A program made the translations under genes and the position numbers. 64,000 nt of DNA from Kiritimatiellia bacterium (lineage in GTDB: Bacteria > Verrucomicrobiota > Kiritimatiellia > UBA8416 > JAWODU01), in NCBI GenBank assembly GCA_046483125.1, contig JAWODU010000085.1, positions 1,430 to 65,429 of the forward strand. The letters run 5' to 3'. The notes under the pieces were generated by a model. That model was not told where the DNA came from and searched no databases. It was given only the letters and a program-made list of their open reading frames with translations. This document shows, piece after piece, positions 4,393-56,976 of the stretch. Position 1 is the first letter of the stretch, and each line of letters opens with the position of its first letter.

Positions 4393-4443
4393 TCGTATCT
4401 AAATCTTAATCTCCCCAAATCTTAATCCCAAGCTTAATCTTGT

Positions 4444-4803
4444 ATCCCCCGCGCCACGCAGGCCGGCGTGTGGCGGAGGGGTTCGGCTCTGCCTCTGCGC
4501 TCCGTGTGTGCCCTGTAGCCCTGCGTCACGCATTTCGTTCGCAAATCGAACCGCGATCTCACCGCTTCTGCTTCGTTTCCGCCCTCCTCGGGTATATGTA
4601 TACACGCTCGGAGGGCGGGGCCTTGCAGAAGCGGCAAGCTTGCGATCCGATTTGCGAATCCTACGGAAGCGAAATGCGTGACGCAACAGCCCGCATCGCG
4701 GGCGGCGTACTGGAGGTTTCACAGCGCCGCTTATCCGCGATGCAAGAAGAGTAGACCTCCCACCATCCTGTAGATCCGGTAGATCCTGTCTAAACATCTT
4801 CTC
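4444..4803. repeat. ~360-nt structured repeat element, copy A
   Basis: Reverse complement aligns to 14681-15048 and partly to 11214-11348. Contains a 164-nt hairpin (4522-4685) and a second hairpin (about 4694-4743). Confidence 0.88.
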
Positions 4804-4813
4804 CCCTTCTCCC

Positions 4814-4855
4814 ATTTCTGCTTTCTGCTTTCAACTTTCAGCTTTCAGCTTTTCT
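4814..4855. repeat. Heptamer tandem array (CTTTCnG)x5-6
   Basis: atttctg ctttctg ctttcaa ctttcag ctttcag cttttct. Confidence 0.75.
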
Positions 4856-5045
4856 TTTTGCGGCTATTCCAGTTCCGGACTTTCGGCGAACACATCCGTG
4901 AAATCGGTGGTTCTTACCTTCTTCAATGCCGAAAAGGCGGCATTTTTGCAATAGTGCAAATTCCTTCTTGACGGCAATTAACAAAATGGCGCAAATTAGG
5001 CAATGTTAAAGCTGGCGCAACCCGGTTGCCTGAAAAGATATGAAT

Positions 5046-6213: not shown

Positions 6214-7059
6214 ATGAGAAGAGAGAGAAAAGTTATTGTTTGCGTTGTCTGTCTGGCCATCGTGCTTGTGCTGAACCTTCCTGCGAGCTGTGTACGGGAA
6301 ATCAAGGGGGAAACGCGGGACAGTTTCGTTCCCTTCCAGAACGTAATGTGGCTTGTGATCCGCGGCGGAGGTGATTTTCTGTCTTCGGTGACCAACGCCC
6401 GCGGGGAACTTGAAGAAAAAAAGGAAATGGAAAGAGAGATCGCGTTCCTTAACGAGAAGATTGTGAGTCTGGAAAATGCGGCGCGGGAAAACGAAATCCT
6501 GCGCGACAAACTGGGTTTCGCCAGCCGTGATGAAAGAAGCCTGAGACTCTGCGAGGTAGTGGGGCGGGACATAAGCGGATGGTGGCAGACGCTTACATTG
6601 AACGCGGGAGCTCATGAAGGCGTAAAAGAAAACATGGCGGTGATAACATCCGAGGGCCTGGTGGGGCACGTTAAATCGGTTTCCAGACATACGGCTACGG
6701 TATTGCTGATTACCGATCAGACATCGCGGGCGGCCTGCAGGCTGTCCCGGAGCGGCGCCTTCGGCGTAATTCGGGGCGCCGGTGTCGCCCTTAGCGGCAA
6801 GCACCGGCTGGAGATGCTTTATTCGGTAAGACCCTGTGTAATGGACTATATACCGAGTGATAGCGATGTAAAACCCAACGATCAAGTTTTGACTTCGGGT
6901 CTTGGAGGCGTTTACCCGTCGGGTCTTCTTGTGGGTTACGTGACCGCTATTCGGCCTTCGCCCTCGGCTCTATACCAGAGAGCCGAAGTAGTACCGGCGG
7001 CGGAACTCAGGTCTCTGAAATACGTTTTTGTGGTGATGGAGGAGGACGGAGAGGGATGA
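6214..7059 (+). CDS. mreC: Rod shape-determining protein MreC
   Basis: TM plus coiled coil (ENEILRDKL), GLVGHV, VLTSGLGGVYPSGLLVG. Follows mreB. Confidence 0.93.
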   Translation: MRRERKVIVCVVCLAIVLVLNLPASCVREIKGETRDSFVPFQNVMWLVIRGGGDFLSSVTNARGELEEKKEMEREIAFLNEKIVSLENAARENEILRDKLGFASRDERSLRLCEVVGRDISGWWQTLTLNAGAHEGVKENMAVITSEGLVGHVKSVSRHTATVLLITDQTSRAACRLSRSGAFGVIRGAGVALSGKHRLEMLYSVRPCVMDYIPSDSDVKPNDQVLTSGLGGVYPSGLLVGYVTAIRPSPSALYQRAEVVPAAELRSLKYVFVVMEEDGEG

Positions 7060-7150
7060 CGGATGACAGATGACAGATGACGGAGGACAGATGACAGACG
7101 ACGGAGGAAGGAGGACAGAGGGAGAGATTAAGATTGGGATTAAGATGGGC
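7054..7150. repeat. Mosaic repeat: (RGAYGAC)x9 followed by GATTAA/GATTGG hexamer tract
   Basis: ggatgac ggatgac agatgac agatgac ggaggac... then agggagagattaagattgggattaagatggg. Same module order at 10886 and 14554. Confidence 0.85.
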
Positions 7151-7184
7151 AGGCAAAGGTTATGCGAGACCATAGGGATATGAA

Positions 7185-9550: not shown

Positions 9551-9670
9551 TTAGGCAGGATCAATCCGCAGAATCAACAGGATAGTTTTCCGTCAATTAT
9601 GCGGCGACAGCCGCATGATTGGCGGCTTATGATGCATCTCAGATCCTGTAAATCCTGTCAGAAAATTCCC
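9551..9670. repeat. GACAGGAT...ATCCTGTC inverted-end mini-element with internal CAATTATGCGGC hairpin
   Basis: Ends ttaggcaggatc / gatcctgtaaatcctgtca. Homologous to 54310-54426. Right end matches the reverse complement of 56671-56699. Confidence 0.8.
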
Positions 9671-10878: not shown

Positions 10879-10885
10879 GTAGCAC

Positions 10886-11348
10886 GGAGGACGGATGACG
10901 GACGACAGAGGACGGAGGGAGAGATTAAGATTGCGATTAAGATTATGAATAAGATGTGGGGAGATAAAGATAAAGATAAAGATTGGGATTAAGATGGGGA
11001 GAGGGGAGGGACACTTAGTCCATAGACTTAGTCGCAACACTTGGTCCTTTACGCTTACTCGACCCGCTTTGCCCGTAGTTGTTGAGAAGGAATCGGTCAA
11101 GTTTGGCGGTTAAGTGTAACCGTCCGCCGCGGCCGCGGCGGAAAGGGTGGCGACTAAGCGAGTCGATTAAGAGTGATAGATTAAGATTAAGATTGGGATT
11201 AAGATGGGGAGGAGAGAAGATGTTTAGACAGGATCAACAGGATGCTTGGGGCTCTGCTCCCCTTGCATCGCGTCCGGCGGCACTACAGTACCTCCGATAC
11301 GCCGCCAGCGATGCGGGCTGTTGCGTCACGCATTTCGCTTCCGCAGGA
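10886..11348. repeat. Composite repeat mosaic (heptamers, GATTAA tract, CCGCCGCGGCGG module, partial structured element copy C at 11214-11348)
   Basis: Segments match 7054-7150, 3580-3720 and the reverse complement of 4665-4803. Confidence 0.85.
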
Positions 11349-14362: not shown

Positions 14363-14414
14363 CCCGCCGCCCGCGATGCGGGCTGGGAGCAACCACGGAT
14401 TTCAGGCATGTTCG

Positions 14415-14534
14415 CCGATCGGGGGATCGGCTCCTACAAAAGCCCTGCGGGTGAGACACCCGCTACTACAACGCCCGGAAGGTGTAATAACTCGTGTCCT
14501 CACGCGTGCATGTAGGAGGCGAACCATGTTCGCC
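14415..14534. repeat. Cluster of three GTAG-type REP-like palindromes
   Basis: Minus strand GTAG-GAG-CCGATC-CCCC-GATCGG (14415-14437). Minus strand GTAG-TA-GCGGGTG-TCT-CACCCGC (14447-14469). Plus strand GTAG-GA-GGCGAA-CCATG-TTCGCC (14512-14534). Confidence 0.7.
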
Positions 14535-14553
14535 GAAGGTCGGAACTGAGGGC

Positions 14554-14680
14554 AGATAACGGATGACGGACGACAGAAGACAGACTACGGACTACGGACT
14601 ACGGACTACTAAGGGAGAGATTATGATTAAGATGTGGGGAGATAAAGATAAAGATTAAGATTGGGATTAAGATGTGAGGC
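14554..14680. repeat. (RGAYNAC)x8 heptamers plus GATTAA/GATAAA tract
   Basis: agataac ggatgac ggacgac agaagac agactac ggactac x3, then agggagagattatgattaagatgtggggagataaagataaag, as at 10914-11000. Confidence 0.85.
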
Positions 14681-15048
14681 GAGAAGGCTTTTAGACAGGA
14701 TCTACAGGATCCTAAGAGCACTGCCCACACTGTCTCTACTGCTTTGCTCTTCTTGCATCGCGGATAAGCGGCGCTACAAAACCTCCAGTACGCCGCCCGC
14801 GATGCGGCAAACCGCGTGATGAATTCCGCTTCCGTAGGATTCGCAAATCGGATCGCAAGCTTGCCGCTTCTACAAGGCCCCGCGGGCTGAGCTGTATTCG
14901 TATACGCGAAGCCCGCGGAAACGAAGCAGAAGCGGTGAGATCGCGGTTCGATTTGCGAACGAAATGCGTGACGCAGGGTGGAGGGCAAGAACAGAGCCCA
15001 AAGACGCCGAACCCCTCCCCCACACGCCGGCCTGCGTGGCGCGGGGGG
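14681..15048. repeat. ~360-nt structured repeat element, copy B (inverted relative to copy A)
   Basis: Long near-identical blocks with the reverse complement of 4444-4803, e.g. ggaaacgaagcagaagcggtgagatcgcggttcgatttgcgaacgaaatgcgtgacgcaggg. Confidence 0.88.
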
Positions 15049-15102
15049 AGGACACACTCCCCTTGACACGAACCTCATTCTCCCACACATTTCTCTGCAT
15101 CC

Positions 15103-22186: not shown

Positions 22187-22463
22187 TGTCAAAAGTTCCA
22201 TGAACACGGACGAATGACGAGTTGGAACACTTAATCGCACACTTAACTGCTACCCTTTGTCGTATACGCTTAAACGACTCTGTTGCAACGGCTGGCACAT
22301 GACGAGTAAGCAGGTCGGTTAAGGGTGTGCGTCCGCCGCGGCGGAAAGGGTGGCGGTTAAGAAAGCGTTTAAGTGTATTGGGAAAAGGGGGAGAGAGTCG
22401 AAAAACGGCTAATGACCTGAAACAAGGACAGTTACACAGATAAACGTGCTGTCAGCTTTGACA
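22187..22463 (+). mobile_element. MITE-like element copy 1 (TGTCAAA...TTTGACA ends)
   Basis: Positions 22216-22463 are about 97% identical by hand alignment to the reverse complement of 30396-30644. No ORF and no clear TSD. Confidence 0.6.
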
Positions 22464-22491
22464 ATACTGCGACTACAAGGAGGGAAAAATT

Positions 22492-30367: not shown

Positions 30368-30395
30368 ATCGGCCTTTCTCCCTTTATCTTCGTAC

Positions 30396-30679
30396 TGTCA
30401 AACCTGACAGCACGTTTTTCTGTGTAACTGTCCCTTTTTTCAGGTCATTAGCCGTTTTTCGACTCTCTCCCCCTTTTCCCAATACACTTAAACGCTTTCT
30501 TAACCGCCACCCTTTCCGCCGCGGCGGACGCACACCCTTAACCGACCTGCTTACTCGTCACGTGCCGGCCGTTGCAACAGAGTCGTTTAAGCGTATACGA
30601 CAAAGGGTAGCGGTTAAGTGTGCGATTAAGTGTTCCAACTCGTCCTACATCCGTTTTTGTCGCGGTAGAACTTTTGACA
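30396..30679 (-). mobile_element. MITE-like element copy 2 (inverted copy of 22187-22463)
   Basis: Near-identical reverse complement with the same TGTCAAA termini. Confidence 0.6.
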
Positions 30680-48047: not shown

Positions 48048-49139
48048 TCAGCCGCGAATGAATTTTCCGTCCCGCTGGAATTTTCGACCGTCCACTTTTA
48101 TGGACCCGCCCTTGCGAAGGTCTTTTATGAGATCCCAGTGGATAGCCGAAGAGTTGCGTCCCCCGGTCCCAGAAGGAGACTTGCCGAGCGCCAGATGCAC
48201 CGTTCCTCCGGTTTTCTCATCAAAAAGAATATTCCGTGTGCATTTGTTGATTGAATAATTCGTGCCTATCCCTATTTCTCCCAGACGTTGCGCGCCCCGA
48301 TCGGTTTTCAGCATTGTTTTCAGGAATTTTTCGTTCTTCTCAGCCGAAGCGTTTACCACCGCGCCCTTCCTGAAGGTCAGCCTGACACCCGCGATTTCCC
48401 GCCCGTACCGGCATGAAGGTAAATCAAATGTGATATGTCCTTCAGCCGATGATTCCAGCGGCGCGGCGAAAATTTCGCCGCTCGGCATGTTGTTATGACC
48501 GTCTGAATTCACAAACTTTCTGCCTTTAACCGACAGGTTTAAATCCGTGTCGGGGGCTTCAATTCTGATATTGCCGGCCCCGCGCAGTCCGGCAATCAGC
48601 CTTTCCTGTCTCTTTCCCAGCCGCCGCCACGCCCCTATGGGGTCCCGTCTGTCCGCAAATGCGGCCGCGAACACGAAATCTTCAAACTCTCTCAGACTCA
48701 TCTCCGCGTCCTGAGCGTAGGCGCGTGTGGGATAAAGGGTTAATACCCATGGCTTTTTTCGCAAAGTGTTCCAGACCGGTTTCATAAGACGGGCCATGCG
48801 CATCTGTTTGCGCGGAACAGTGCCGGACAGTGATTTCGTGTTGCCGCTGGACAGAATGTTTATTGTTGAATCCACTACGCGGGAGAAGGCGCGCTCGTAA
48901 GGAGAAAGAGTTTTCAGGTGATATTCCCGGGCCAGGGTATAGAATGAATCCATTACGGCGTCCGGTGTCATACGGATCACGGGAAATGCGCCGCACCGGA
49001 GCAGTTCTTCATATACCGCCACGATCAGGCTTTCGCTTTCGGTTCCGCCGCTTATACCGACGCACTGGCCGCGGGACGCTGAGACGCAGTATCTGACCAG
49101 TACACGCGCAAGATTCCTGATTCGGGGGTCAAAGGCCAT
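48048..49139 (-). CDS. M29 (AmpS/AmpT-like) aminopeptidase
   Basis: NMPSGEIF, LGEIGIG, LFDEK..GTVHLALG, SAIHWD. Start MAFDPRI overlaps the trpA stop. Confidence 0.88.
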   Translation of the reverse strand: MAFDPRIRNLARVLVRYCVSASRGQCVGISGGTESESLIVAVYEELLRCGAFPVIRMTPDAVMDSFYTLAREYHLKTLSPYERAFSRVVDSTINILSSGNTKSLSGTVPRKQMRMARLMKPVWNTLRKKPWVLTLYPTRAYAQDAEMSLREFEDFVFAAAFADRRDPIGAWRRLGKRQERLIAGLRGAGNIRIEAPDTDLNLSVKGRKFVNSDGHNNMPSGEIFAAPLESSAEGHITFDLPSCRYGREIAGVRLTFRKGAVVNASAEKNEKFLKTMLKTDRGAQRLGEIGIGTNYSINKCTRNILFDEKTGGTVHLALGKSPSGTGGRNSSAIHWDLIKDLRKGGSIKVDGRKFQRDGKFIRG

Positions 49140-49918
49140 TATCTCTTTCCCCGCAGTGACCGGCTCAAATCCGCCACAAGTGTTTTGAGTCTGTTTTCCC
49201 TCGCCGCCTCGACAAGAGCGCTTCCCACCACAACGGCGTCGGCCATCCGCGAAAGAGAACGTGCCTGCTCGGAATTCCTTACACCGAACCCAACGGCAAC
49301 CGGAAGGTCCGAACACCCGCGCAGTATCGCGATATGTTTGTCTATATCCGAAGCAGTACGTTCCCTCATGCCGGTTACTCCGGTCACCATAATATAGTAG
49401 ACGAAACCGCCCCCCTTCTCGAGCATCCGCCGCGCCCTCCCGCCGTCCGTAGTCGGCGCCGCAAGAGGGATAAGGTAAAGACCGTTTTGCCCCGCCAGTC
49501 CGCGTATCTCGGAGGATTCTTCAAAGGCAAGGTCCACAATGAGCAGGCCGTCGGCCCCTGCTTCCGCCGCATTTGAACAGAGAGACTCAAATCCATACCG
49601 GAAAAAAGGATTGCAGTAGCCGAAAAGCACAATCGGCTGATCAAAATCACGCCGCAGACGCTTGACCATCTCCAGCGCTTTGGACACGGTCATCCCGCCG
49701 GCCAGAGCTCTTTGCGACGCCTCCTGGATTGTCGGACCGTCCGCCGTGGCATCAGAGAAAGGAACTCCCAATTCCAGAATGTCCACCCCGTTCTCAAGGG
49801 CGGTACGAATGTTCTGCTCAGACGTTTTCTCATCGGGATCTCCGGCGGTGAGGTATCCCACAAATCCGGTCCTTTTTTCCCGTTTCAAATCCGCAAACTT
49901 TTTATCAATGCGATTCAT
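49139..49918 (-). CDS. trpA: Tryptophan synthase alpha chain
   Basis: YLTAGDP, LELGVPFSDATADGPTIQ, GVTG, VAVGFG, VVVGSA. Confidence 0.97.
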   Translation of the reverse strand: MNRIDKKFADLKREKRTGFVGYLTAGDPDEKTSEQNIRTALENGVDILELGVPFSDATADGPTIQEASQRALAGGMTVSKALEMVKRLRRDFDQPIVLFGYCNPFFRYGFESLCSNAAEAGADGLLIVDLAFEESSEIRGLAGQNGLYLIPLAAPTTDGGRARRMLEKGGGFVYYIMVTGVTGMRERTASDIDKHIAILRGCSDLPVAVGFGVRNSEQARSLSRMADAVVVGSALVEAARENRLKTLVADLSRSLRGKR

Positions 49919-49942: not shown

Positions 49943-51127
49943 TCACGTCCGGGTGTCGAGAACGCTGTCCACATCCTTGTCTCCTCTACCGGAAAGATTA
50001 ATGACAACGACGTCTTCCGCGGACATGTTTCCCGCCCTCTTTTTCGCTTCGGCAACGGCGTGTGCCGGCTCCAGCGCAGGCAGAATTCCCTCCAGCCTCG
50101 ATAAATCGTGGAATCCTTCCAGGGCCTCACTGTCCGTGACACTGCAGTATTCCACCCGGCCTTCGTCCGCCCAGAGAGAATGCTCAGGTCCTACGCCGGG
50201 ATAATCGAGGCCGGCGCTGACGGAATGAGCGTTCAGTATCTGGCCGTTTTCGTCCTGCAACACGTAACTCTTGCTGCCGTGAAGTATCCCTATCCTGCCG
50301 GCTCCGATACTCGCTGCATGCTTGCCCGTGGCAATCCCGAGTCCTCCCGCCTCAACACCGACAAGCCTTACGCTTTCATCTTCAATAAAGGGTATGAATA
50401 TTCCCGCGGCGTTACTGCCCCCTCCCACGCAGGCAATAATCATGTCCGGGAATCTCTTTTCTTTTTTCAAAATCTGTTCACGTGTTTCGCGCCCGATCAC
50501 GGTCTGAAAATCGCGCACCATAAGCGGATAAGGATGCGGGCCCGCGACTGAACCGATAACGTAAAATGTGGTTCTGATCTCCGCTACCCAGGCTCGCAGA
50601 GCTTCGCTCATCGCGTCTTTCAGTGTCCGGGTCCCGGTACTTACGGGAACTATCTCGGCGTTCAGCAGTTCCATGCGTTTTACGTTCGGAGCCTGTCTGC
50701 GTATATCTTCTTCTCCCATGTAAACCACGCATTCCATGCCGAAAAGCGCCGCGGCCGTGGCCGCAGCCACCCCGTGCTGGCCGGCCCCCGTCTCCGCCAT
50801 CAGCCTTTTTTTGCCCATTCGCCGCGCCAGCAAAGCCTGTCCGATAGTATTGTTAATTTTGTGCGCGCCGGTATGATCCAGGTCCTCGCGTTTGAGATAT
50901 ATCCGCGGGCCGCCGTATTCCCCGGTCAGCTTTTCCGCGAAATACAGAGGGGACGGACGTCCCACGTAGTCCTCGAGCAACCGCCGCAGTTCAGCTTGAA
51001 AAGCCTTGTCGGAACGGGCCTCTTCATACGCTTTCTCTATTTCCGTCAAAGCCGGCATCAGGGTTTCGGCCACGTATCTGCCGCCGTACACCCCGAAGTG
51101 CCCCTTTTTATCGGGCCCCTGTTTCAT
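49943..51127 (-). CDS. trpB: Tryptophan synthase beta chain
   Basis: [51 protein letters not shown]. Confidence 0.98.
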
Positions 51128-51761
51128 GAGTGTCTGAATCCTTTCTTTCACATGCCTGCGCGTTCCGAATGAACGACCGAACCATATTAAGATCTTTTTT
51201 GCCCGGCCTGGCCTCAACACCGCTGGCCACGTCCACCGCCTGGGGGCGCACCTTCCTGACGGCTTCCGCTACGTTGTCCGGATTCAGACCTCCGGCAAGA
51301 ACAACGGGAAATTCAGCCGCCAGTTCGGATGCCTTCCGCCAGTCAGCCGTTACTCCGGTCCCGCCGTAAATGCCGGGGACTACAGCGTCCGCCACGTATC
51401 TCGCCGCCGGCCATTCACGGGGCCGTGGATGCCAGTCATTTCCCCGAAGTCTGAGCGCGCGCCACAGCGGCACTTCCATGGCTTCGAAATCTTTCCTGGT
51501 TTCATCCCCGTGCAATTGAACGGCGTACAGCCCGCAGTCCCGGGCCACGCTTTCAATGAAGTCCCTTTTTTCATTCACAAAGACACCGATCGTTTGCGTG
51601 TCGGCGGGCAGTTCGGCCGCGATCTCTCCGAGCTTTCGTGCCGATATACTCCTGGGCGATTTCCCATACAGGACAAACCCGAGGTAATCCGCACCGTATT
51701 CCAACGCGGCCCTGGAATCTTCCAGATTCGTAAGGCCGCAAATTTTGACCTCAGTGCTCAT
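51108..51761 (-). CDS. trpF: Phosphoribosylanthranilate isomerase
   Basis: [36 protein letters not shown]. Confidence 0.96.
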
Positions 51762-53013
51762 CGCCTCGGCCGTTGTCATGCCCGGGCGGATTCCCGGGCC
51801 CGGTATCCCGTCCGATATTCAGACGCTCTCCCGCCTTATCGACGATTTCCGCCATTGTTACAGGTTTCTTGAGCCATGTGTGAATCCTGCCGTCCCCGAC
51901 GATTTCCTTCAGACCGTCGGTAACATCAAAAGCCGTGCAGAATATGAACCGCGGACACTCGCGGCCTTCGCTTTCACACATCTCGCGGATCTTGTAGAAG
52001 GCCTCCTCGCCATCCAGCTCCGGCAACAGTATATCCATCAATATAACGCCGTAGTGGTTATCCTTGAATCTGTACAAGGCCTCCAGTCCGTCTCCGGCTT
52101 CGTCGACGCTTACGTCAGGAAACGCAGATTTCAGGGCCTCAACAAAAATCTGCCGGATTTTTTCTTCGTCGTCGACCACCAGCATTCTGGAAGAATCACA
52201 GCCCCTCAGCGGTTCGGATGAAACCGGACTGCTTTCAGCGGTTTTATGTTCAATTTTCTCTTCATCGGTCTGTTCTCTCTTGATCCGGTTTAGAATTGAA
52301 TTGATGCGCTCAACCTGCTCGAGATAATCGCTTCTCTTATCCAGTTCGGCCAGGCACGTCAATATCTGCAGTGGATCGTTGAGTTCCTGCGTGACCGCGG
52401 ACACGGTCTCCAATGCCGTCTGGGCTTTTTCCGCTTCCAGAAGTTTTTCCTGCGCGGCCGCCAGATCCTGTTCCGCCTGTTTTCTGCCTGTAGCGTCTCT
52501 TATAAAGAAACAGAACAGGCGGTTTTCTTTCCGCATCATCTGGTTTACAACTATTTCAGCGTAAAAACGTGAATTATCCGACCGAAGACATACCGCTTCC
52601 AGAACCGTATATTTATTCTGCCCCACATTCTCGCCCAACACGTCCAGGACTCTCTTGTCCGCGCCCGAAACCAGATCAAGAATGTTCCTATCGCAAAGTT
52701 CGGCCCTTTCGAGGCCGAATTTGTGTTCCGCGCGGGCGTTTACCTCCAGAATCGAACCGTCGAGAGATGTAATGAACACGGCGTCATATATTGTGTGAAA
52801 AAGCTGGTCGTATTTCGTTTCCTCGGAATCGTCCGCCCTGCTCTGCCGGACGGCCGGATGCTGTATCACCTGCTGAGTGATATTCATCCTGTCGGTACCG
52901 AACTCGGCGCTTTCCTCCTCGCCGTAGACACGGACCGGCTCTTTCCTGGTAGTCGGTTTGTAAGAAGATGCCTTCTCGGATCGCCTGATTATTCTTTTGG
53001 GCTTTTTCCCCAT
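51751..53013 (-). CDS. PAS domain + degenerate HisKA-like helix + receiver domain protein
   Basis: PAS (DAVFITSLDGSILEVN), TQELNDPL, REC (VVDDE...MDILLPELDG...CTA...KKP). No HATPase domain. Confidence 0.85.
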   Translation of the reverse strand: MGKKPKRIIRRSEKASSYKPTTRKEPVRVYGEEESAEFGTDRMNITQQVIQHPAVRQSRADDSEETKYDQLFHTIYDAVFITSLDGSILEVNARAEHKFGLERAELCDRNILDLVSGADKRVLDVLGENVGQNKYTVLEAVCLRSDNSRFYAEIVVNQMMRKENRLFCFFIRDATGRKQAEQDLAAAQEKLLEAEKAQTALETVSAVTQELNDPLQILTCLAELDKRSDYLEQVERINSILNRIKREQTDEEKIEHKTAESSPVSSEPLRGCDSSRMLVVDDEEKIRQIFVEALKSAFPDVSVDEAGDGLEALYRFKDNHYGVILMDILLPELDGEEAFYKIREMCESEGRECPRFIFCTAFDVTDGLKEIVGDGRIHTWLKKPVTMAEIVDKAGERLNIGRDTGPGNPPGHDNGRGDEH

Positions 53014-53035: not shown

Positions 53036-53188
53036 TTAACGGCCGGTCAATTCCCGCAATTGTTTCTCCGGATTGTCATTGCGCATCAGGGTCTCTCCAA
53101 TGAGAAAGCCATCATAACCCGCCGCTTCAAGTTTTTCAACATCCATCCTCGTGCCGATACCGCTTTCGGTAATCGACAGGCGGGAAGC
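53036..53188 (-). pseudogene. trpC: 3' remnant of indole-3-glycerol phosphate synthase
   Basis: Translates ASRLSITESGIGTRMDVEKLEAAGYDGFLIGETLMRNDNPEKQLRELTGR*, the TrpC ESGI and L(I/V)GE.LMR motifs, at the canonical trpD-trpC-trpF position. The N-terminal ~200 codons are absent. Confidence 0.88.
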
Positions 53189-53277
53189 GTGGACGTCCCC
53201 TCTCCTCCTCAACCAATTACCATCCGTGTAATCCGTGGTTCTCCCATGCGGTATGCGTCTATCACTCTCTTAATTGA

Positions 53278-54285
53278 TCACGAAGCCGTGGCCTTGATCA
53301 GCTCTTCGAGCTTTCGCTCTGCCGATCCGCTGTCCACCGATTCCTGCGCCAGTTTCCACCCCTCGCTTATATCGTCACACTTCCCTCCCGCAGAGATTGC
53401 CGCGGCGGCATTCAGGCACACAATGTCGCGGGCCGGTCCTTTCTCTCCTGAAAGCACGCCCCGGCTGATGCCGGCGTTAACGGACGCCTCTCCTCCCCGC
53501 AGATCGTCGCTCCCGGAGTAATCGCCGATCAGGTTTACCGGATCGAAGTCGTAGGTCCGTATTCTCCCGTCGCGAAGCTCACTTATTCGCGTGGTCGTTG
53601 TCGTGGTTATCTCATCCATCCCGTCGTGCCCGTGGACGACAAACGCCTTCCTGCTCCCCAGCAGTTTCAACACCTCCGCGAACGGTTCCGTCAAATCGGG
53701 AGAGAAGACTCCTATTATCTGGCTTCTGGCGCCGGCCGGGTTTGTAAGAGGACCAAGCATATTAAATATGGTTCTTATGCCCAGTTCCCGTCTTGGCGTC
53801 ATCGCGTATTTCATTGCCGGATGCAGTCTGGGCGCATAAAGAAAGCCTATTCCTGTTTCCTGTACACATTCTTCCACGGTGGCCTGATCGGCCTCTATAT
53901 TTACTCCCAGTTCAGCCAGCAGGTCCGCTGAACCGCATTTACTGCTGATCGCCCGGTTGCCGTGTTTCGCCACCGGAACGCCCGCGCCCGCAGCCACGAA
54001 AGCCGCCGTGGTGGATACGTTGAAAGTATCGCATTTGTCCCCTCCCGTGCCGCACGTGTCGATTACCGGGGCCCCGGCCGCGTCGATAAAAACCGCGTGA
54101 CGCCGCATTGAGGACGCCGCTCCCGCGATTTCCTCCGCGGTTTCGCCCTTTACGCGCAAAGACGCTATAAAAGCCCCTATCTGCGCGGGCGTGGCTTCTC
54201 CGGACATGATCAGGTCAAACGCCTCGCCCATGGCGCTCTGAGAAAGATCCCGGCCTTCAACAATTTCCGAGAGATACTGTTTCAT
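53278..54285 (-). CDS. trpD: Anthranilate phosphoribosyltransferase
   Basis: DTCGTGGD, FNVST, KHGNRAISSKCGSAD, RTIFNMLGPLTNP, HGHDGMDE. Confidence 0.97.
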   Translation of the reverse strand: MKQYLSEIVEGRDLSQSAMGEAFDLIMSGEATPAQIGAFIASLRVKGETAEEIAGAASSMRRHAVFIDAAGAPVIDTCGTGGDKCDTFNVSTTAAFVAAGAGVPVAKHGNRAISSKCGSADLLAELGVNIEADQATVEECVQETGIGFLYAPRLHPAMKYAMTPRRELGIRTIFNMLGPLTNPAGARSQIIGVFSPDLTEPFAEVLKLLGSRKAFVVHGHDGMDEITTTTTTRISELRDGRIRTYDFDPVNLIGDYSGSDDLRGGEASVNAGISRGVLSGEKGPARDIVCLNAAAAISAGGKCDDISEGWKLAQESVDSGSAERKLEELIKATAS

Positions 54286-54309
54286 GTTTGTTTTCCCCTT
54301 TCCCGGAGA

Positions 54310-54519
54310 TTTTTTTGACAGGATTTACAGGATCCGGGAGACCCCAGCACGCCGGCAATTATGCAAACACAGCCGCATAATTGCCGACCGGCTATCCTGT
54401 TGATCTTGTTGATCCCGTCTAATCCCTTTTTCGATCCAATAAAGAACTCTCGTTTCCCTGGACTCTCCGAATCCGCGCCATCAGTGGACGTCCCCTCCCC
54501 CATCCCGCATCCCGTATTC
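54310..54519. repeat. GACAGGAT-type mini-element plus GTGGACGTCCCCTC motif and heptamers between trpG and trpD
   Basis: ttttgacaggatttacaggatc...ggcaattatgc..gcataattgcc...atcctgttgatcttgttgatcccgtctaa. gtggacgtcccctc at 54484-54497 is identical to 53189-53202. Confidence 0.82.
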
Positions 54520-54523
54520 ATCC

Positions 54524-55111
54524 TCAGGAACCGGAATACTCGCCCACGATCCCCAGGAAATTCCTAATCAGCTTCTTACCGCTCGGGGTAAGCACCGACT
54601 CAGGGTGAAACTGAACGCCGTAAGTAGGATGGCTTTGATGGCGCAAGCCCATTATTTCGCCGTCGTCGTCGCTCTCCGCGTCAATTGTCAATTCCGCCGG
54701 AACACTTGAACGCTCCACGGCCAGGGAGTGGTAACGTCCGGCGGTAAACGGGTTCTTAATTCCTCGATACAGCCGTGATCCGTCGTGCCTGACCGCGGAA
54801 GTTTTGCCGTGCATTATCCTGCCCGCGTTCCCTACCGCTCCCCCGAACGCGGCGCCCACGCACTGGAGTCCGAGACACACGCCCAGTATCGGTGTTGTGC
54901 CGGAAAGCAGACGGATCAAATCGACCGAAATGCCCGCGTCGCCGGGCGTGCCCGGGCCCGGCGATATCACTATCCCCTCGGCCTTCATTCCGGCTATCTC
55001 CTCGGGAGTTACGACGTCGTTGCGGAAGACTCTGACATCGGCGCCCATCCCAGCAAGCGCCTGCACGAGATTGTAACTGAATGAATCGTAGTTATCGATG
55101 AGTATCAGCAT
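54524..55111 (-). CDS. trpG: Anthranilate synthase component II (glutamine amidotransferase)
   Basis: IDNYDSF, ISPGPG, LGVCLGLQ, RYHSL, QFHPES. Confidence 0.95.
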   Translation of the reverse strand: MLILIDNYDSFSYNLVQALAGMGADVRVFRNDVVTPEEIAGMKAEGIVISPGPGTPGDAGISVDLIRLLSGTTPILGVCLGLQCVGAAFGGAVGNAGRIMHGKTSAVRHDGSRLYRGIKNPFTAGRYHSLAVERSSVPAELTIDAESDDDGEIMGLRHQSHPTYGVQFHPESVLTPSGKKLIRNFLGIVGEYSGS

Positions 55112-55114
55112 GGT

Positions 55115-56578
55115 TCACGGTCCGCCGGGTACTTCAAGGCCCCCGACAGCCATCTGCACGGCTTTCTGCATTCCCCGCGCTTTGTGGCACGTTTCGTCGA
55201 ATTCCCTTTCAGGCACGGAGTCGTATACTATACCCGCCCCCGCCTGGACGGAAACAGAACCGGGAGAAATATCCAGAGTCCTGATCGTAATAGCCATGTC
55301 CATATTCCCGTTGTACCCCACGTATCCCATGGCTCCGCCGTAGGCGCCCCTGGTTCCGGGCTCAAGTTCATTAATGATTTCCATGGCCCGGATCTTCGGA
55401 GCGCCGGTCAATGTTCCCGCGGGAAACGTCGCCCCTATAACGTCATAAGCGTCAAGCCTTTTTCTGAGAATACCCTGGACGTGCGACACCAGGTGCATAA
55501 CGTGGCTGTACCTTTCTATCACCATATATTCAGGGACCTGTACACTGCCGGCTTCCGCGACCCTGCCGATATCGTTTCGTCCCAGATCCACCAGCATCAC
55601 GTGTTCGGCTTTCTCCTTGTCATCCTTCAACAGCTCATCCGCCAGTTTTCTGTCTTCCTGCGGGGTCGCGCCCCTGGGCCTGGTTCCGGCTATCGGCCGA
55701 AGCTCCACCTTACTGCCGGTCAGCCGCACCATTATCTCCGGCGAAGAGCCTACCAGCACGTGTTCGCCTGTTTTGAAGAAAAACATGTAAGGCGAGGGAT
55801 TCAGCAGGCGCAGTGCCCGGTAAAGCTGTATCGCAGGCACGTCGGTGCGGGCGCTGAAGCGCTGACTCAGCACGGCCTGGATTATGTCTCCGGCGTATAT
55901 GTATTCCTTTGCCTTGTTTACGATCCGTGCAAAGTCTTCACGGCTCATGTTCGACTCGAAATGAGCCGGCGGATACGACTGAGCCGTTCGTTCCGGAGCA
56001 GGCGACTGAATCGTGCCGACGATTTCCGACACCTTCTCGATTCCGCGCTGATAGGCCTGTTGGGCCGAACCTTCACGGTCCGGCCTGGTACATACCACGA
56101 TTTTCATCGTGTGCCTGACATTGTCGAAAACGATCAGACTGTCTGCGCTCAGAAAACGGCTCACGGGTCCCGGGTCTTCCGGCCCCTTCCGCGGCGCCGG
56201 TACCCGTTCGAACTCCGATATCGCCTCGTAGCCTATAAATCCCACTGCTCCCCCGAAAAACCGCGGCAGGCCTTCAAGCTCGGCCACGCGGACATTATCG
56301 TATATCCGGCGCAGTGCTTCCAGCGTACGGCCGGAAGCCTGCGAGTGATCGGCTTCAAGGAAAAGGTCGGGGTTCACACCGACAAAGGAATACCTGCCCC
56401 ATGTTTCTCCTCCTTCCACGCTTTCCAGGAGAAAACAGTTCGGCATGTCGGCGAATCGCTGAAGAACTGAAACCGGCGTTTCCATGTCGGCGAGCAATTC
56501 CCTGTAGACGGGAATTACGTCGTGGTTCTCCGCGAGACGAAGGTACTCCTCTTTGCCTGGGTATACGTTGTTTGACAT
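55115..56578 (-). CDS. trpE: Anthranilate synthase component I (start 56578 or 56590)
   Basis: LLESVEGGETWGRYS, AGDIIQAVLS, NPSPYM, SSPE, PIAGTRPRG, KEKAEHVMLVDLGRND, ERYSHVMH. Confidence 0.96.
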   Translation of the reverse strand: MSNNVYPGKEEYLRLAENHDVIPVYRELLADMETPVSVLQRFADMPNCFLLESVEGGETWGRYSFVGVNPDLFLEADHSQASGRTLEALRRIYDNVRVAELEGLPRFFGGAVGFIGYEAISEFERVPAPRKGPEDPGPVSRFLSADSLIVFDNVRHTMKIVVCTRPDREGSAQQAYQRGIEKVSEIVGTIQSPAPERTAQSYPPAHFESNMSREDFARIVNKAKEYIYAGDIIQAVLSQRFSARTDVPAIQLYRALRLLNPSPYMFFFKTGEHVLVGSSPEIMVRLTGSKVELRPIAGTRPRGATPQEDRKLADELLKDDKEKAEHVMLVDLGRNDIGRVAEAGSVQVPEYMVIERYSHVMHLVSHVQGILRKRLDAYDVIGATFPAGTLTGAPKIRAMEIINELEPGTRGAYGGAMGYVGYNGNMDMAITIRTLDISPGSVSVQAGAGIVYDSVPEREFDETCHKARGMQKAVQMAVGGLEVPGGP

Positions 56579-56647
56579 ACTGCGCTCCATCGGGCACTGA
56601 CCCTTCAGGCCCGCTGAGCATCCTATATCCCGCTCCCCCCCGAATCA

Positions 56648-56722
56648 AGCGCTTCCGTAAGAAAGGCCGGGGGAATTTTCTGACAGGATCTACGGGATCT
56701 ACGGGATTATAAGAGCGCTTCC
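56648..56722. repeat. Half GACAGGAT element flanked by a 9-bp direct repeat AGCGCTTCC
   Basis: gggaattttctgacaggatctacgggatc (56671-56699) matches the reverse complement of the right end of 9551-9670. agcgcttcc at 56648-56656 and 56714-56722. Confidence 0.6.
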
Positions 56723-56976
56723 ACAACGTCTCTACTGCCCTCTGAGGTCTTACCAAACCGCCACACCTGGATTTCTGCGGTCGCAAGTTGATTGTGGGTC
56801 AACCCCGGCATGAGTGTCCAGTCGACGAGGATCTCGACGAGGATCGAGACGAAGATGAGCCCCCTCGCGATAAACCCCATAAAACTTGGTCTTTCTGAAA
56901 GCCCGTTTCAGGGGTGGCGTTTGCTAAGACGTCAGTACCCTTGACGAAGGGATTCGAACCGTTGAATATAGCCCCC

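Follow-up and report, generated by a model that had tools for sequence, protein, structure and literature searches.

A probable recent deletion pseudogene of trpC in the trp operon of an uncultured Kiritimatiellae lineage

Introduction

What became of the IGPS gene in the trp operon of an uncultured Kiritimatiellae lineage? Between trpD and a gene encoding PAS and receiver domains (PAS-REC), where a complete trpC might be looked for, the operon holds a short stub of the gene next to repeated DNA. Such a stub could be a genuine remnant or an artefact of assembly, and the answer bears on whether the lineage can make Trp. We analyzed the whole 64,000-nt stretch of contig surrounding this site (the window) and compared it with syntenic loci of relatives. 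Our main reading, to which we assign a probability of about 0.8, is that the stub is a genuine pseudogene: the operon trpC recently lost ~615–625 nt from its 5' part, and its last 50 codons remain. On this reading, the genome is rich in repeats and trpC is one more case of a gene lost to a recent deletion, not a new kind of system.

Results

The trp locus

The trp genes lie on the minus strand in the order trpE, trpG, a 238-nt repeat-rich spacer, trpD, 264 nt of non-genic DNA, the PAS-REC gene, trpF, trpB, and trpA (Table 1). The six genes other than trpC had been considered intact in an initial annotation of this DNA, and all six indeed span their NCBIfam or Pfam profiles end to end. Alignment with relatives places the probable start of trpF at 51761, and the true start of trpB is probably at ~51127. 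The best database matches to TrpD are proteins from Kiritimatiellae MAGs (up to 76% identity), which places the organism in this class. The gap between the trpC stub and the PAS-REC gene that follows it is 22 nt. A search of the window for known RNA families returned one tRNA only.

Table 1. Coordinates of features at the trp locus, of intergenic repeats in the window, and of trpC in a sister lineage.
Feature	Coordinates	Strand	Remarks
trpE, intact	55115..56590	-	TIGR00564, 521.5 bits (cut-off 517.7), positions 1–454/455
trpG, intact	54524..55111	-	TIGR00566, 219.5 bits, full length
trpG–trpD mosaic spacer	54286..54523	-	second 14-mer copy (54484–54497), nonamer and heptamer repeats
trpD, intact	53278..54285	-	TIGR01245, 409 bits, positions 2–329/330
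rest of spacer after trpD stop	53203..53277	-	includes 22-nt module AGAACCACGGATTACACGGATG (53221–53242)
junction 14-mer GTGGACGTCCCCTC	53189..53202	.	holds 8-nt palindrome GGACGTCC
trpC (IGPS) 3' remnant	53036..53188	-	50 sense codons (ASRLSITESGI...LRELTGR) and stop
candidate sigma-70-like promoter TTGAAA-17-TATGAT in stub	53111..53139	-	10/12 consensus positions
PAS / DHp-like / receiver gene (PAS-REC)	51751..53013	-	Pfam PAS and Response_reg
trpF, intact	51108..51779	-	PRAI 142.8 bits; NF002298 212 bits, full length
trpB, intact	49943..51220	-	TIGR00263, 619.5 bits, positions 1–383/385
trpA, intact	49139..49918	-	TIGR00262, 237.6 bits
mosaic examples (intergenic)	4760–4990, 7041–7154, 10884–11245, 14390–14760, 54286–54523, 56591–56913		
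L022 trpC, full-length with nonsense codon	L022 4133–4909 (GCA_964618835.1, CAZUCL010000162.1)		codon 69 is an in-frame TAA (L023: TAC)

The trpC remnant

The stub was called by the gene caller as a 58-amino acid ORF (P0154), and the minus-strand translation of 53036–53212 reads MRRRGDVHASRLSITESGIGTRMDVEKLEAAGYDGFLIGETLMRNDNPEKQLRELTGR, followed by a stop codon. Residues 7–55 correspond to positions 206–254 of the 254-position Pfam IGPS profile PF00218 (43.9 bits, E = 2.2e-11), and the NCBIfam TrpC equivalog models are matched over their last ~50 positions only (27–47 bits, against cut-offs of 258–380). When aligned to IGPS chains of known structure, the stub covers residues ~205–242 of the S. 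solfataricus enzyme (1A53/1IGS) and residues 208–253 of 6Y88; we take it to be the β7–α8 part of the barrel. Homology to trpC may continue two codons beyond the 5' edge of the stub, to 53194. A resemblance further upstream (T..TD, compared with KTLKTD in relatives) falls within a dispersed 22-nt module and was therefore treated as chance.

The C-terminal phosphate-binding motifs of IGPS, E-S-G-I and L-(I/V)-G-E-x-L-M, are kept in the stub as TESGI, which also occurs in 6Y88, and LIGETLM. The catalytic residues of IGPS are the Glu and Lys within the β1 motif E-x-K-(K/R)-A-S-P-S along with the Lys, Glu, and Asn of β3, β5, and β6. The region carrying them is absent: alignment with five relatives begins at their residue ~206–209, and three-frame translation revealed no IGPS similarity upstream of the stub in the other two frames. 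Codons 1 to ~205–208 of trpC, corresponding to the β1–β6 part of the barrel with the catalytic Lys and Glu, thus appear to be gone. What remains does not span the full profile of the ~250-residue (β/α)8 barrel of a functional IGPS. As the stub is unable to form this barrel, the operon copy of trpC is dead.

A second IGPS was not found in the 64-kb window, with tblastn searches using the full-length TrpC of two relatives yielding one significant HSP only, that of the stub. The Pfam, NCBIfam, and tblastn results bear out the initial annotation, which had stated that the C-terminus of TrpC alone is left between trpD and PAS-REC. For annotation, this means that the 58-amino acid ‘IGPS’ ORF should not be counted as a functional TrpC; in metabolic reconstruction, the IGPS step should be scored as missing unless a second IGPS turns up.

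The ancestral trpC site in relatives

Collinearity with the window extends, in a Kiritimatiellae contig (L020), across the whole neighbourhood between the genes for H+-PPase and Wzz. Its gene order is H+-PPase, metallo-β-lactamase, Na/Ca exchanger, TatD, YggT-like, trpE, trpG, trpD, trpC, PAS-REC, FHA, trpF, trpB, trpA, peptidase M29, RNase HII, BBP2, and Wzz, and its trpD is followed by a 33-nt spacer, a 257-amino acid trpC, 66 nt, and PAS-REC. Four other relatives (L010, L013, L014, and L021) have an intact 258–262-amino acid trpC directly upstream of the PAS-REC orthologue. The PAS-REC orthologues next to intact trpC in these five loci show 42–47% identity. About 30 orthologues of the PAS-REC protein were found, and those with a source name are from Kiritimatiellae. 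The comparison with sister genomes that had been proposed for this locus therefore finds a trpC of 257–262 amino acids between trpD and PAS-REC at orthologous positions, and the site of the stub is the ancestral position of trpC.

Between the stop codon of trpD and the start of PAS-REC, the window has 264 nt and L020 has 873 nt. Because the stub aligns from residue ~206–209 of the relatives to their end, 615–625 nt are missing, in agreement with the deletion of ~600 bp proposed initially. The relatives thus have an intact syntenic orthologue and the missing part is not nearby in any frame or on either strand, as would be expected of a unitary truncated pseudogene.

The order of trp genes is fluid in the class. 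L004, which has the common upstream synteny, is without trpC after trpD, and in GCA_028716365.1 trpEGD...trpC and PAS-REC-FHA-trpFBA are on different contigs. This last genome also has a 23S_rRNA_IVP (four-helix-bundle) gene between trpE and trpG (L006, 5915–6298), another sign of insertion tolerance at the gene boundaries of this operon.

The junction and the 89-nt spacer

The 14-mer that the stub abuts had been described as identical to a sequence in the trpG–trpD spacer, and this proved correct: GTGGACGTCCCCTC occurs exactly twice in the window, at the junction and at 54484–54497, in the same orientation. The match between the two copies extends to 16/17 nt. Local alignment of the two spacers bearing the 14-mer gave a score of 29, as compared to 16.5 ± 2.0 (maximum 24) for 300 shuffles. 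About 1.5% of positions in the window begin a 14-mer that recurs in the window, so the exact 14-mer repeat alone is only modestly unusual.

The deletion breakpoint would lie at or within this 14-mer. Translation of the DNA immediately upstream of the junction gives GNWLRRRGD(VH), which does not correspond to residues ~190–205 of TrpC. GTCCAC, the final 6 nt of the 14-mer, codes for V-H and could represent altered I-P codons of trpC, which would amount to microhomology at the join.

The remaining 75 nt up to the trpD stop had been assigned to the repeat family in their entirety. This assignment stands for ACCACGGATTACACGGAT, which has three approximate relatives against 0.04 expected, but not for TTAAGAGAGTGATAG, whose recurrence in the window is not above chance, and the rest of the spacer is unique. 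The 22-nt module matches intergenic positions 4893–4914 at 20 of 22 nucleotides and has related copies at 14392 and 42742; for the 18-mer the count is 4 matches against 0.04 expected. E is 0.016 for each of the 22-nt and 14-nt modules. The recurring modules (22 nt and 14–17 nt) cover only about 40% of the 89-nt spacer. No RNA structure or terminator was detected in this spacer (z = +1.35). The edge of the deletion appears to coincide with lineage-specific repeat DNA. Compared with the spacers of L023, the closest relative with an intact trpC, those of the window show no significant homology, and the pre-deletion state of the lineage is therefore not recoverable from L023.

The deletion had also been called repeat-mediated. 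The junction does abut a recurring short motif, but the copy at 54484 was ruled out as the deletion partner because trpD, which lies between the two copies, is intact. One copy of the 14–17-nt module is at the junction and the only other one is beyond intact trpD, and so we can only infer the mechanism. We suggest that the upstream edge of the deletion lies in the 89-nt spacer, which would be built partly from the genome's own intergenic repeat modules. The deletion would most likely have arisen by illegitimate or microhomology recombination at a repeat module, or have accompanied the insertion or expansion of the mosaic. Readthrough from the trpE promoter into PAS-REC and trpFBA would still be possible.

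Intergenic repeat mosaics

Short repeats are common in the window (GATTAAGAT, 13 copies; ACAGGATC, 11 copies) and nearly absent from the syntenic loci of relatives. They form lineage-specific intergenic mosaics (Table 1) of tandem heptamers or hexamers (GGATGAC, GATTAAG, and GACTACG) and nonamers (ATCCTGTAG), in which the motif TTTTTGACAGGATnTACAGGATC has 5 copies. The modules recur intergenically above chance, as in a dispersed, REP/BIME-like family of mosaic repeats. The REP/BIME elements of E. coli and the STRR heptamer arrays of cyanobacteria are mosaic intergenic repeats as well. Like these, the modules of the window are short or arranged as tandem heptamers, are confined to spacers, including those between operon genes, and are potential substrates for illegitimate recombination. 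Unlike REP/BIME and STRR, to which they have no sequence relationship, they are lineage-specific, and their mobility and any role in the deletion are only putative. The proliferating intergenic repeats of this lineage thus sit at gene boundaries inside operons.

The trpG and trpD genes overlap in L001 and L020, whereas in the window they are split by the 238-nt mosaic. This spacer has the motif TTTTTGACAGGATTTACAGGATC at 54312–54334 and a perfect 16-bp hairpin (CGGCAATTATGC...GCATAATTGCCG) at ~54350–54391, of which a related copy occurs at 9564–9605. The whole spacer folds with z = -3.25. L023 has repeats of its own that cannot be aligned to the spacers of the window: an array of GATTGGT heptamers directly behind the trpD stop (2845–2938) and a long hairpin in the trpG–trpD spacer (1614–1824). 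Ten small ORFs in the window, several of which are in or near larger repeat-rich gaps, showed no gene remnants.

Larger repeats are present elsewhere in the window. Inverted repeats of ~265 nt at 22203–22467 and 30392–30657 flank an 8-kb segment that includes a gene for a 2191-amino acid protein. They consist of a 225-nt arm with 96% complementarity and a 48-nt arm with 90%, and one arm folds with z = -5.5; no Rfam match to them was found. Their core, GTCCGCCGCGGCGGAAAGGGTGGCGGTTAAG, has four copies (3659, 11117, 22320, and 30499). A second set of inverted repeats (4401–4810 and 14650–15050) brackets a ~10-kb segment and has blocks of 86–146 nt with 88–98% identity and an internal hairpin in each.

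Age of the loss

Scored against the Pfam IGPS profile, the stub (43.7 bits) is comparable to the equivalent segment of four intact relatives (36–42.5 bits). Its identity to relatives of 45–55% fits the trend seen between intact proteins at equal TrpD distance, and its identity to L022 is about 61% by hand count. The sequence of the stub appears to bear no sign of relaxed selection. Since the stub scores like intact relatives and the other six trp genes are intact, the loss is recent, and by these comparisons the deletion appears recent when set against how far these lineages have diverged. The locus would show a Trp pathway very soon after one step was broken, with all its other steps complete.

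Parallel inactivation of trpC in a sister lineage

L023 and L022 are the two closest relatives by TrpD, each with 76% identity. The trpC of L023 (260 amino acids) is intact, and the full-length trpC of L022 is interrupted by a nonsense codon (Table 1). In L022 TrpC the conserved KKASPS is also changed to KTATPS, and the protein scores 260 bits with the stop codon masked. The trpE, trpG, and trpD genes of L022 are intact. If the TAA codon is not a base-calling error, the operon trpC would have been inactivated twice, independently and recently, in a small clade. This independent nonsense mutation makes a biological loss of trpC credible. The recurrent inactivation in sister lineages is the most interesting residue of the case, and it is the kind of pattern that would be expected either from gene redundancy or from incipient auxotrophy, with Trp or indole supplied by the community.

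Discussion

Could the stub be an artefact? The initial annotation had held a mis-assembly collapsing two repeats to be as probable as a deletion, which was too generous. The sequence 5' of the junction is not trpC-like, and therefore the collapse of two repeats of at least k-mer length could not have hidden an intact trpC; the nonsense codon in L022 also argues for a biological loss. The routes to an artefact that are left are a chimeric join and a rare deletion variant, with intact trpC in the dominant genome, and we consider this unlikely. An undecayed stub and intact trp genes are what would be expected if nothing had been lost, and the genome is rich in short repeats, but the repeats at the junction (14–22 nt) are shorter than the k-mers that we assume metagenome assemblers to use for final contigs. 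Both flanks are syntenic with relatives. An exact look-up with TrpD returned no same-species contig with an intact locus, and when GTDB genomes and JGI metagenomes were scanned with PAS-REC for such a contig, only unrelated response regulators came back.

Taking the pseudogene to be genuine, Trp auxotrophy, in which TrpBA might salvage indole, and the presence of another IGPS elsewhere are roughly equally likely. A deletion that is real but harmless, with a relocated, duplicated, or horizontally acquired trpC elsewhere and the stub as the fossil of the displaced copy, has in our estimate a substantial chance, though one short of even. The fluid gene order seen in L004 and GCA_028716365.1 makes relocation plausible, and the six intact pathway genes argue for a pathway still in use. 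No second IGPS is present within the 64 kb, and no known relative has been shown to have two trpC genes. When a collection of 5.8 billion protein sequences was searched by shared 5-residue words, the stub retrieved only itself, which speaks against a recent duplicate, although a divergent copy could escape such a search. Inactivation of the operon trpC in two sister lineages independently would fit relaxed selection on the operon copy. The same inactivation, with trpE, trpG, and trpD intact in both lineages and trpF, trpB, and trpA intact here, could also mean that the clade has a non-orthologous, unrecognised IGPS enzyme, or that the upper pathway is retained to make some other product, with TrpBA serving indole salvage; this strikes us as very improbable. 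Also improbable, if a little less so, is that the stub was kept as regulatory DNA that provides PAS-REC-trpFBA with a 5' leader or a promoter inside the operon. The candidate promoter within it is ~98 nt upstream of the PAS-REC start, and relatives have spacers of 33–128 nt between trpC and PAS-REC, roomy enough for a promoter of their own, as compared to 22 nt here. However, this promoter sequence is not conserved in the 3' ends of the relatives' trpC, and the scan that identified it has low specificity (10 sites in 8 kb against 3.6 expected, with a Kiritimatiellae consensus not established). A recent deletion, moreover, needs no selective reason for the keeping of 150 nt.

The deletion pseudogene that we favor has partial counterparts in known systems. 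The trpC2 allele of Bacillus subtilis 168 is reportedly a 3-bp in-frame deletion that arose in a laboratory lineage, and the trpC2 strain requires Trp or indole. As in trpC2, IGPS alone has been hit by a deletion here and the rest of the trp operon is intact; unlike trpC2, ~620 bp or four fifths of the gene is gone, and this in an environmental lineage and as known from sequence alone. Chlamydia have an incomplete Trp pathway, with TrpBA still usable for indole salvage. The lineage studied here likewise belongs to the PVC bacteria, and its Trp pathway too is incomplete, with indole salvage by TrpBA possible. Chlamydia, also of the PVC superphylum, have partial or decayed trp operons (for background, PMC8670374). 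In contrast to Chlamydia, in which most of the pathway was lost over long times, a single gene has been lost recently here, with no hint of host dependence. Trp auxotrophy is predicted to be widespread in gut bacteria (PMC10689445). As in that work, biosynthetic steps are lost in community-living bacteria that may obtain the amino acid from neighbours; unlike there, where auxotrophy was deduced from absent genes, a gene remnant is visible in place here. We found nothing specific in the literature on Trp auxotrophy in Kiritimatiellae.

The PAS-REC gene deserves separate mention. A gene combining PAS, DHp-like, and receiver domains is conserved between trpC and trpF in the trp operon of many Kiritimatiellae. 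In its DHp-like part, the phospho-accepting His is replaced by Q or Y, and there is no ATPase domain. Its residence in the operon is seen from gene order, and a tie to Trp synthesis is so far unexplained. In relatives, PAS-REC is usually followed by an FHA / Yop-YscD_cpl protein of 584–1427 amino acids. Unlike in most relatives, no FHA gene lies between PAS-REC and trpF in the window (51751–51830), and no remnants of the relatives' FHA gene or PF1765-like gene were found in the window. L021 and L004 are without these genes as well, so that their absence from the window may be ancestral. The PAS-REC protein of the window has a C-terminal extension of ~15 residues that reaches into the start of trpF.
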